64,000 nucleotides of DNA from Escherichia phage JY01, in sequence record OR995200.1. One strand, given 5' to 3'. Position 1 is the first letter of the stretch; every line of letters starts with the position of its first letter. The notes under the pieces are model-generated. The model was given only the letters and a program-made list of their open reading frames with translations. It did no database searches and had not been told where the DNA came from. The translations under genes and the position numbers were made by a program. Below are positions 1-54,038 of this stretch, piece after piece.

Positions 1-447
1 AATATAACAAATTACGTTATATTTTTCTTTTGCCTTTTTGAACAACTCTTCTTTTGAAGAATCATGACCACACATTAATATTTCTGAGAAGGCACCAGGA
101 AAAAGAGCATTCAAATTAAATTGACGATTCAGCAGAGCGTCAATAGAATCACCCAGTGCTGTAACAGCTACAAAATTATAATCTTCTTTTAATTTGTTAA
201 TTACACACAGGGCATCTTTATACGGAGACAAGTAACGAATAAAATCTGAACGATTGTATTTTTCAATTAACTTGACACCAAGTTCTTCATCGCAATTAAA
301 GAGCTTACCAGGAGAAATAAATTTTTCGTCCTGAATCATTTTTAAAATATGTTCTAATGGAAGATTATATTTTTGGGCAAAATAAGGAAGACCTGATTGC
401 CAGCTTAAACATACACCATCAATATCAGTCAAAATAGTAGGCTTCAT
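1..447 (-). CDS. HAD-superfamily hydrolase-like protein, partial (C-terminus runs off the window start); occupies the T4 30.2 position
   Basis: Minus-strand ATG at 445-447 overlapping the stop of the next ORF; N-terminus MKPTILTDIDGVCLSW carries a DxDx(T/V) HAD motif I; open to position 1. Confidence 0.5.
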   Translation of the reverse strand, partial: MKPTILTDIDGVCLSWQSGLPYFAQKYNLPLEHILKMIQDEKFISPGKLFNCDEELGVKLIEKYNRSDFIRYLSPYKDALCVINKLKEDYNFVAVTALGDSIDALLNRQFNLNALFPGAFSEILMCGHDSSKEELFKKAKEKYNVICYI

Positions 448-908
448 AGAGAGTCTCTTAATAGGTTTAACACATCAATAAATTCAGCTTCGGTTAGTAT
501 TGTATCATCTTTTGTTAGACCACTAGCCATGCTGTGCTTCAAAACTTTTCCTTTCGAGGCTTGTAATGCATCACGAAAGCCCTTGTTTTGGATCGCTGCT
601 TCAAAATATGCATTTGTGTATAATTCTTTCCACGCTGAGGAGTATCTTGAAAACGGAACTCCAAGCCAAAAGAGGGTCCCACGGTCCTGAGCTCTTGCAT
701 AAGACCTTCCAGCTTGTTGGGCGGCAAGCCCGGATAACCCAAATATACGACGTTGTTGTTCAACATTTTTCACCTTGCATCCTTGGAGGAATCCTTCAAG
801 ACCTCCAAATTGGATACCATCCATAACAAAAGGCCATTGGGCGAAATTACTTAATGCACATGATGGCCACCTAAAATTGCTTCTAATCTCTAACTCAGAC
901 ATTTTCAA
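444..908 (-). CDS. 30.3: YbiA/NADAR (DUF1768)-like protein, T4 30.3-like
   Basis: 154-aa ORF; LSNF...W...PF..DG..F...E motif pattern typical of the YbiA/NADAR family as recalled; position matches T4 30.3. Confidence 0.55.
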   Translation of the reverse strand: MKMSELEIRSNFRWPSCALSNFAQWPFVMDGIQFGGLEGFLQGCKVKNVEQQRRIFGLSGLAAQQAGRSYARAQDRGTLFWLGVPFSRYSSAWKELYTNAYFEAAIQNKGFRDALQASKGKVLKHSMASGLTKDDTILTEAEFIDVLNLLRDSL

Positions 909-1101
909 TGCTTATAATTTCAACATCAGCCCAATGACCATAGCAAGGAAGACGAAATTCAACTGGCCAGTTAGGGTCCTTTTCTAATATAATAGACTCA
1001 ACTCGTGGTTCTTCATGTTCATCAGTATATGGATTTTTATCTGTTACTTTATATGTGACTTTAATGTATTGAATTCCAAAAATCTTATTAATTATATTCA
1101 T
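895..1101 (-). CDS. hypothetical protein (T4 30.4 position)
   Basis: 68-aa ORF, minus strand, start/stop overlaps with neighbours. Confidence 0.45.
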   Translation of the reverse strand: MNIINKIFGIQYIKVTYKVTDKNPYTDEHEEPRVESIILEKDPNWPVEFRLPCYGHWADVEIISIENV

Positions 1102-1582: not shown

Positions 1583-1623
1583 AGTATTTTCCTTAGTAAG
1601 GGGCCGAAGCCCCTCATTTTATT

Positions 1624-2470: not shown

Positions 2471-2495
2471 TAAAAAAGGACTCCCGAAGGAGTCC
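2471..2495 (-). terminator. intrinsic terminator (hairpin plus U-tract)
   Basis: GGACUCC-UUCG-GGAGUCC hairpin followed by UUUUUU on the minus-strand transcript. Confidence 0.6.
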
Positions 2496-2500
2496 TCAAC

Positions 2501-6265: not shown

Positions 6266-6458
6266 TTACCTCACATAATTTTCTTCAAGCCAATCAATAA
6301 CATCTAAAGCGTTATCAAAAGTTGAACCATCTACTCTGTCTTCTGTTTCATAATCAAGAACATCTAAGCCTACTCTTCCATCAACAATAGGCCATAAACA
6401 AAATAGATATTTCTTTTCTTTTTCAATTTTATCACAAAGATGATAAATCTTTTCTAGG

Positions 6459-52815: not shown

Positions 52816-53418
52816 TTATAGATTAAATCCTTCAAAATCAAGAGTATAGATAGTGTATGTTGAATACTTTTTATACTCATATCTATCTGCAATTCTAAAT
52901 ACACTTCCAGCTGGTATCATTACTTCTTGTTCATCTGAAACTAATTCCATATTACGATAACGATGGCTATCCGGAAACTTAAAGTTTGGATTGTATTCTT
53001 TACAACGTAGAGCTTTTATAGCATACTCCTGGAAATTGAATACCATAGGAGCTTTGAATTCAAAAATAACCTGTGTGTTATACTCTAAACCGGAAGCAAA
53101 ATGTAGAGCTATATTTTTATCATATGAAGCTGATACGACTTTATCAAATGTAATAATATCAATTCCTTGATTTAACACCTGCTTAGTCTCAATTGGAACA
53201 CCTCTCCAAAGAGGTTTATCGTTTGGAACCAAACGAGATTTAATTATTTCATTTAACCAAGTATGGTCATCTGGTTTGTTGGTAATACAATGAATTAAAA
53301 GTTCAATTTCAGATAAATTAAACCCTTCAGAAAGTAATTCTTCACGAATAGAAGCACGCACCGATGCATCCATTGATTTTATTTTAAAATCTTTTAGTTG
53401 CATTACTGAGTATTTCAT
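52816..53418 (-). CDS. modA: ADP-ribosyltransferase ModA
   Basis: 200 aa; R-S-ExE ART motifs (LWRG..., ...SASY..., SDEQEVMIP); paired with modB. Confidence 0.7.
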   Translation of the reverse strand: MKYSVMQLKDFKIKSMDASVRASIREELLSEGFNLSEIELLIHCITNKPDDHTWLNEIIKSRLVPNDKPLWRGVPIETKQVLNQGIDIITFDKVVSASYDKNIALHFASGLEYNTQVIFEFKAPMVFNFQEYAIKALRCKEYNPNFKFPDSHRYRNMELVSDEQEVMIPAGSVFRIADRYEYKKYSTYTIYTLDFEGFNL

Positions 53419-54038
53419 TCAACTACCTCAATATCATAAACTTTAAATGTTCCAAATGAATCGTGTAATTTTTCTTTTGAAATAGAAGTTATTTTATACT
53501 TTCCAATTGGAATCATCCATTCTTGTTCACGCACAATCATCATTAAGTTATCAGTTCTTTCTGAATCTAACCCGTCAGTATCTTCATACGTGTACTTAAA
53601 CTCAGTATTAGGAGAAGAAAGTATAATATCGCTGATATGGTCAGAATAATTAAAAGCTTTATCAGTTTTTAAGCGAAAAATTATTTCAGTGAAATACTCA
53701 AAATAAGAAAAACCACATGCTGTGTGCAAACTAGTAGTAAATGAATCTACCCTGTTCGTTGAAAACACTTCTCCAACTTGTAAATCTTTAATAAGTTCTT
53801 TTGTCGATTTTGATATACCACGATATAATTGATAAGGCGATTTAGTTAAATGCTTTTTAATGATTTTATTCAATTGCCGATGAAGAGCTTCATTCTTTTT
53901 GGCTTCCATACATTGCCAAAGAACAGACTGCTCAAAGTCAGTAAATTTTTCACAGACTTTTTTATACATATCATATTGAAAATCAACGCTTTCAGCTTTT
54001 ATAGATAACTGTTCAACATCTGCAAGATTAATAATCAT
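53415..54038 (-). CDS. modB: ADP-ribosyltransferase ModB
   Basis: 207 aa; R-S-ExE motifs (LYRGIS, FSTNRV, REQEWMIP). Confidence 0.7.
   Translation of the reverse strand: MIINLADVEQLSIKAESVDFQYDMYKKVCEKFTDFEQSVLWQCMEAKKNEALHRQLNKIIKKHLTKSPYQLYRGISKSTKELIKDLQVGEVFSTNRVDSFTTSLHTACGFSYFEYFTEIIFRLKTDKAFNYSDHISDIILSSPNTEFKYTYEDTDGLDSERTDNLMMIVREQEWMIPIGKYKITSISKEKLHDSFGTFKVYDIEVVE

Follow-up and report, generated by a model that had tools for sequence, protein, structure and literature searches.

The DNA analysed here is a window of 64,000 nucleotides, the first 3 kb of which are 97–98% identical to many Tequatrovirus genomes (megablast, 97.8% over 3 kb); as judged from the sequence, its source is a T4-like (Tequatrovirus) phage. 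We examined gene identity, NADAR fold and catalytic-residue conservation for one gene at the start of the window, the HAD fold and motifs of its neighbour, and the frequency with which the two are adjacent elsewhere. The following features lie at this end of the window:

444..902, minus strand: adfN (gene 30.3), 152 aa; ATG at 902-900, TGA stop at 446-444, coding part 447..902; putative orphan NADAR DNA ADP-ribosylglycohydrolase
444..908, minus strand: the version of adfN in the ORF list, 154 aa from a TTG, with two extra codons upstream of the ATG
539..766, minus strand: 30.3', a 75-aa ORF in another frame, wholly within adfN; T4 annotates an internal translation product, to which it is 96% identical
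895..1101, minus strand: gene 30.4, 68 aa, coding part 898..1101; its stop (897-895) and the adfN start share bases in ATGTCTGA
1..447, minus strand: gene 30.2, the first 149 of 278 codons, the rest lying beyond the window edge; 147 of 149 residues identical to the N-terminus of T4 gp30.2
444..447, minus strand: ATGA overlap of the 30.3 stop (446-444) and the 30.2 start (447-445); the same in T4, where 30.2 ends at 6311 and the 30.3 stop runs from 6308

The biological start of adfN is the ATG at 902 (MSELEIR...), in agreement with the T4 annotation; the residue numbering and the cloning primers of T4 adfN also fit this start (Johannesman, Carlson & LeRoux, Nat Commun 2025;16:1598). The protein is identical to T4 gp30.3 at 150 of 152 positions (99%), the two substitutions, P89S and I125M, both falling at sites that vary in the family alignment, and it matches Pfam PF08010 (Phage_30_3) with E=9.4e-70. 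It is the same gene as in T4, with the same length of 152 aa, the same C-terminal helix, the same E36, K43 and H123 and the same place between 30.4 and 30.2. No DarT toxin gene is adjacent, making AdfN here an orphan, and Pfam and PADLOC gave no ART match among the neighbours 30.2 and 30.4-30.8.

Terminator-like GC-rich hairpins with T runs were seen further into the window at 1599-1614 (plus strand), between 30.7 and 30.6, and at 2476-2497 (minus strand), downstream of 30.9, their count being no higher than in shuffled controls.

NADAR fold and catalytic residues of AdfN

The initial annotation had recognized the motif pattern of the YbiA/NADAR family in the 154-aa ORF and had proposed a comparison with NADAR/YbiA structures. 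The AF2 model of AdfN (pLDDT 92.7, pTM 0.88) consists of helices at residues 35-41, 47-54, 58-69, 89-105, 107-115 and 138-151 together with short strands, in keeping with the NADAR fold, whose alpha-helical core has two small beta-sheets at its sides. When this model was compared with the PDB by Foldseek, the first match was E. coli YbiA (2B3W; E=4.7e-5, TM 0.69), and ranks 1-3 were taken by three solved NADARs: 2B3W, 8BAU (P. nicotianae NADAR with ADPr) and 8BAT (the NADAR of G. lovleyi DarG1). All non-NADAR matches had E>1. A profile of the gp30.3 family also matched YbiA 2B3W (E=0.0067), which was the sole sequence-profile match in the PDB; a single-sequence phmmer search of PDB sequences with gp30.3 gave no matches.

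Curated models were less direct. The Pfam NADAR model PF08719 did not match AdfN of the window at E<=1, PF08010 alone being reported, and neither did the PADLOC defence-system models, which may include DarG. Because these models give no direct match, the NADAR membership of AdfN rests on the fold, on the profile match to the PDB and on the conserved residues, and the tie is one at the superfamily level. A family member that is 38% identical (P0083) matches both PF08010 and PF08719.

We aligned 57 gp30.3 homologues, with identities down to 35%. E36 and H123 were invariant and K43 was conserved in at least 90% of the sequences; the Glu and the Lys are the catalytic residues that touch ADP-ribose in NADARs. 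Read from the sequence, the three codons are:

797-795, minus strand: AdfN E36, GAA
776-774, minus strand: AdfN K43, AAG
536-534, minus strand: AdfN H123 (phage-type His), CAC

The motif pattern had thus been read correctly, since the catalytic residues are conserved and the fold matches NADAR structures. The last-strand residue distinguishes the subfamilies, being His in the phage gp30.3 NADARs, Glu in YbiA and Asp in DarG1 (Toxins 2024;16:208), and AdfN of the window belongs to the phage gp30.3 subfamily. YbiA itself, at TM 0.69, is only 18% identical to AdfN, carries Glu at the site of H123, and serves a housekeeping function related to riboflavin. AdfN of the window keeps its C-terminal helix (residues 138-151) intact, the protein ending in ...LNLLRDSL; the adfN allele of RB69 is frameshifted, lacks the last helix and is inactive (Nat Commun 2025;16:1598).

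Distant gp30.3 homologues (~38% identical) were also seen on jumbo-phage-like metagenome contigs (L007-L010, up to 308 kb), where only a few genes separate them from a NUDIX hydrolase gene and one of the Thg1 family. The context agrees with published remarks on phage NADARs being found together with other NAD/ADPr-processing genes and with RNA-repair genes.

Published function of AdfN against DarTG1

What is known of the enzymatic activity, the anti-DarTG1 role and the guanine specificity comes from published work on the T4 protein, which is 99% identical. The gene that makes T-even phages resistant to DarTG1 was mapped as 30.3 and renamed adfN, for 'anti-DarT factor NADAR' (Johannesman, Carlson & LeRoux, bioRxiv 2024; Nat Commun 2025;16:1598). 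Deletion mutants on DarTG-carrying hosts, an experiment that the initial annotation had suggested, are on record: loss of adfN from T4 or T2 reduces plating on DarTG1 by ~4 logs, and RB69 is rescued by ectopic AdfN (Nat Commun 2025;16:1598). The E36A and K43A mutants of T4 AdfN are inactive, purified AdfN alone removes ADP-ribose from DarT1-modified DNA in vitro, and AdfN is reported as necessary and sufficient against DarTG1 (Nat Commun 2025;16:1598).

A T4 transposon screen comparing control and DarTG1 hosts (HIDEN-SEQ) returned exactly two significant genes, 30.3 and 30.4 (bioRxiv 10.1101/2025.11.20.689424, Data S6). Insertions in 30.3 (28 sites) were lost on DarTG1 with a log2FC of -7.25 (padj 0), and on plain K-12 the gene tolerated insertions at 27 of its 28 sites, being essential only with DarTG1 (bioRxiv 10.1101/2025.11.20.689424).

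The activity is specific for the base. Of the two modified DNAs named for assay in the initial annotation, in vitro T4 gp30.3 hydrolyses guanine-ADPr and leaves thymidine-ADPr (Toxins 2024;16:208), so that the guanine part of the expectation stood and the thymidine part did not. Guanine-ADPr on RNA is a substrate as well (NAR 2025), and a list of cytidine-ADPr erasers does not have the phage and DarG1 NADAR families among them (Toxins 2026). In vivo, AdfN does not counter DarTG2, whose DarT2 makes thymidine-ADPr (Nat Commun 2025;16:1598); a later T4 screen assigned the anti-DarTG2 role to the macrodomain protein Tk.4/AdfM.

We explain these data by the following mechanism. On infection of a DarTG1 host, the DarT1 toxin ADP-ribosylates guanines of the phage DNA and blocks its replication. 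AdfN acts as an N-glycosidase, hydrolysing the bond between ADP-ribose and guanine by means of E36 and K43 together with H123, which is specific to the subfamily, and removal of the ADP-ribose restores replicable phage DNA. AdfN is, in effect, a copy of the DarG1 antitoxin that the phage carries as an orphan. It shares the NADAR core fold and the guanine-ADPr glycohydrolase chemistry with DarG1, for example that of G. lovleyi (8BAT). AdfN differs from DarG1 in being a bare core without the N-terminal extension, in having His where DarG1 has Asp in the last strand and in lacking an adjacent DarT; nor can it substitute for DarG1 in uninfected E. coli.

We conclude, with little room for doubt, that the gene at 447..902 (minus strand) is adfN, encoding a stand-alone NADAR-fold enzyme that reverses the DarT1-catalysed guanine ADP-ribosylation of phage DNA. 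We infer, by analogy with the T4 protein, that the allele carrying P89S and I125M acts like T4 AdfN. The suggestion that the ORF encodes a NADAR enzyme reversing host DarT-type DNA ADP-ribosylation is thereby borne out by published work on gp30.3/AdfN of T4.

Gene 30.2 encodes a predicted HAD-fold protein

The gene that follows adfN had been noted as a HAD-motif hydrolase. Three of its HAD motifs fall within the window:

426-418, minus strand: gp30.2 motif I, D8/D10 (T-D8-I-D10-G-V)
162-160, minus strand: gp30.2 motif II, T96, by alignment
54-52, minus strand: gp30.2 motif III, K132, by alignment

Motif IV (D150/D151) lies just past base 1, outside the window, and is present in T4 (YIDDL). Among 45 homologues D8, D10, G11 and K132 were invariant, and T96 and D150/D151 were at least 90% conserved. 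Pfam and NCBIfam scans, PF06941 included, matched neither the partial gp30.2 of the window nor full-length T4 gp30.2 (E<=10 for the full length), and the PADLOC models did not match gp30.2 either. Because the curated Pfam and NCBIfam models gave no match, we assigned gp30.2 to the HAD superfamily from its motifs and fold.

The AF2 model of a full-length homologue that is 99% identical to gp30.2 (P0105; pLDDT 92.9) gave 92 Foldseek matches in the PDB at E<=1e-3, and the 50 matches listed were all HAD-fold proteins or designs on a HAD scaffold. The best match was mouse cytosolic 5'(3')-deoxyribonucleotidase (2JAO, E=2.5e-7), followed by more deoxyribonucleotidases, with other HAD subfamilies near-equal to them in score. 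2JAO was also the best match of the gp30.2 profile in the PDB (E=0.0098). With the NT5C 5'(3')-deoxyribonucleotidases (2JAO, 2I7D, 1MH9) gp30.2 shares the HAD Rossmannoid core, a helical cap, here of the C1 type, and the DxDG form of motif I. It differs from them in that identity is ~17%, PF06941 is not matched and T4 gp30.2 has an additional, variable, aromatic-rich C-terminal tail. The HAD call was therefore right at the superfamily level, given four motifs and a predicted HAD fold, and our best guess at the subfamily, as far as modelling can tell, is a deoxyribonucleotidase-like protein. Some database records already name gp30.2 as a hydrolase or phosphatase of the HAD type; a literature search on the protein found no papers.

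The tail of T4 gp30.2 covers residues ~195-278 (L001, 5475-5730), beyond the window, and has many Pro, Asn, Tyr and Trp residues (…FPWNTTWRTPGFNPYNPYHPYQTHPFQTWNYIKPGG…). Its length differs greatly between homologues, some of which lack it, total protein lengths being 176-278 aa, and the model of the 220-aa homologue was of low confidence in the portion of the tail contained there.

An arrangement of another kind was seen in Vibrio phage nt-1 (HQ317393.2, 206037-206988; L003, 4001-4952), where a gp30.3 homologue (38% identical) is directly followed by an NT5C deoxyribonucleotidase (PF06941, E=4.4e-11). The pair is flanked by a-gt.4 and gene 47, a setting that has nothing to do with the gene 30 region of T4, and is a second, independent case of a NADAR gene beside a HAD gene, with no recurrence in 80 other loci. 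When gp30.2 was compared with the nt-1 NT5C protein by hhalign, the alignment was confined to the N-terminal half, at a probability of 88%.

Alternative explanations

The initial annotation had also pointed out that the phage encodes two ADP-ribosyltransferases, which is correct:

52819-53418, minus strand: modA, ADP-ribosyltransferase gene, ~52 kb from adfN
53418-54038, minus strand: modB, ADP-ribosyltransferase gene, ~52 kb from adfN

It is conceivable that gp30.3 edits or reverses ADP-ribosylation by the phage's own Alt, ModA and ModB, and not that by a host toxin. The presence of modA and modB would fit such a role, as would the early joint expression of NADAR genes and ARTs of T4-like phages noted in a comparative study. 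T4 alt, moreover, lies ~2.8 kb beyond 30.2, and its equivalent here would fall just outside the window. Alt, ModA and ModB, however, act on proteins and RNA according to record annotations: they modify arginines of proteins, ModB attaches RNA to proteins, and guanine in DNA is not known to be a target of theirs. The characterised NADARs, T4 gp30.3 among them, cleave the N-glycosidic bond of guanine-ADPr in DNA and RNA; thymidine-linked ADPr is not cleaved, nor is cytidine-linked ADPr by those of the phage type. The tolerance of 30.3 insertions on K-12, with a requirement only in the presence of DarTG1, also argues against a function in the phage's own modifications. The editing of phage-made modifications thus finds no support, and we regard it as extremely improbable. 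Another role suggested by homology is that of a YbiA-type housekeeping N-glycosidase clearing reactive intermediates of the riboflavin pathway, given that YbiA is the best structural match and that some source databases tag homologues as 'YbiA (DUF1768 family)'. Yet the gp30.3 clade has His in place of the Glu diagnostic of the YbiA family, its phenotype is DarTG1-specific, and the published phylogeny places gp30.3 nearest the DarG1 NADARs (Nat Commun 2025;16:1598); we give this role practically no chance.

The juxtaposition of adfN and 30.2 raises the possibility of a two-enzyme module, in which AdfN would set ADPr free or work on ADP-ribosylated nucleotides, and gp30.2 would remove phosphate from the product or the substrate; gp30.2 could then also be the T-even cofactor postulated in the AdfN paper (Nat Commun 2025;16:1598). 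The two genes overlap in ATGA, as translationally coupled genes typically do, and a scan for promoter-like and terminator-like sites, whose total did not exceed that for shuffled sequence, placed none on the minus strand between 30.4, 30.3 and 30.2; adfN and 30.2 are probably co-transcribed. Such overlaps are, however, routine in the early gene string of T4. We surveyed the adjacency with a gp30.2 profile in 80 IMG/VR loci, 4 phage records and 9 metagenome loci. All 13 of the T4/RB69-like IMG/VR loci that have a downstream flank carry gp30.2 directly after gp30.3, which would favour a module, as would the pairing in nt-1 of a gp30.3 homologue with a different HAD protein (NT5C) in another neighbourhood. 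The 66 distant IMG/VR loci (<=46% identity) speak against it: gp30.2 was adjacent in 1, lay 0.7-1.2 kb off in 6 and was missing from the fetched flank, which was up to 4 kb per side and shorter in some, in the other 59, and some of the loci without it are on contigs as large as T4-like genomes (160-180 kb). Nor was a gp30.2-family neighbour found beside the gp30.3 homologues of phiM9, Kikimora, RSP15 and the jumbo-phage contigs. In favour of a link, the gp30.3 and gp30.2 families are each present in ~1,450-1,510 phage records and have host distributions that run in parallel. The most direct evidence is functional: on DarTG1, where 30.3 insertions are lost, those in 30.2 (71 sites) were neutral (log2FC -0.12, padj 1.0; bioRxiv 10.1101/2025.11.20.689424, Data S6), from which it follows that AdfN does not need gp30.2 to work against DarTG1; and AdfN by itself strips ADPr from DNA in vitro (Nat Commun 2025;16:1598). 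A module of this kind is in our view very unlikely.

We therefore rejected both a conserved, general NADAR and HAD module, the adjacency being confined to close relatives and a few intermediate genera, and gp30.2 as the required missing cofactor of AdfN, in view of its neutrality in Data S6. The pairing that headed the initial annotation is real as an adjacency, but its HAD member is not needed against DarTG1 and the adjacency is not conserved beyond close relatives of T4. It has the look of synteny peculiar to one lineage, in a string of closely packed early genes, and gp30.2 most likely has a separate predicted function on nucleotides or sugar phosphates.

Gene 30.4 and the postulated T-even factor

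The reading of AdfN as an enzyme that reverses guanine ADP-ribosylation leaves one set of published observations to be accommodated. Uninfected E. coli is not saved from DarT1 by AdfN(T4), which rescues T5 and Bas25 only weakly; full activity is seen in T-even infections only, and a T-even factor was postulated (Nat Commun 2025;16:1598). A simple single-enzyme picture is incomplete because of this failure in uninfected cells and the weak effect for T5 and Bas25. The dependence on T-even infection does not come from DNA modification, as T4-GT7 is still protected (Nat Commun 2025;16:1598).

It is possible, though we consider it unlikely, that AdfN does not act alone and that an overlapping neighbour is the T-even factor, with gp30.4 left as the candidate. 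Gene 30.4 (21 sites) was the sole hit besides 30.3 in the HIDEN-SEQ screen on DarTG1 (log2FC -1.79, padj 0.014; bioRxiv 10.1101/2025.11.20.689424). All 14 T4/RB69-like loci have a homologue of it directly upstream of gp30.3 and no distant locus does, a range that coincides with where AdfN(T4) works, and the PADLOC models gave no match to gp30.4. As a low-probability lead, gp30.4 fits every stated constraint on the postulated factor. A simpler explanation for the partial depletion of 30.4 insertions is a polar or translational-coupling effect on adfN. In a weaker variant of the idea that AdfN does not act alone, gp30.2 would cooperate with it against some other ADP-ribosylating defence.

Implications

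Both the observation on this gene and its reading were correct and had already been published as AdfN. Since the function has been published for the near-identical T4 gene, the window adds just another natural adfN allele. AdfN has been described as the first case of a lytic phage carrying an antitoxin homologue as a counter-defence, and it marks DNA ADP-ribosylation as an active front of the conflict between phages and their hosts.
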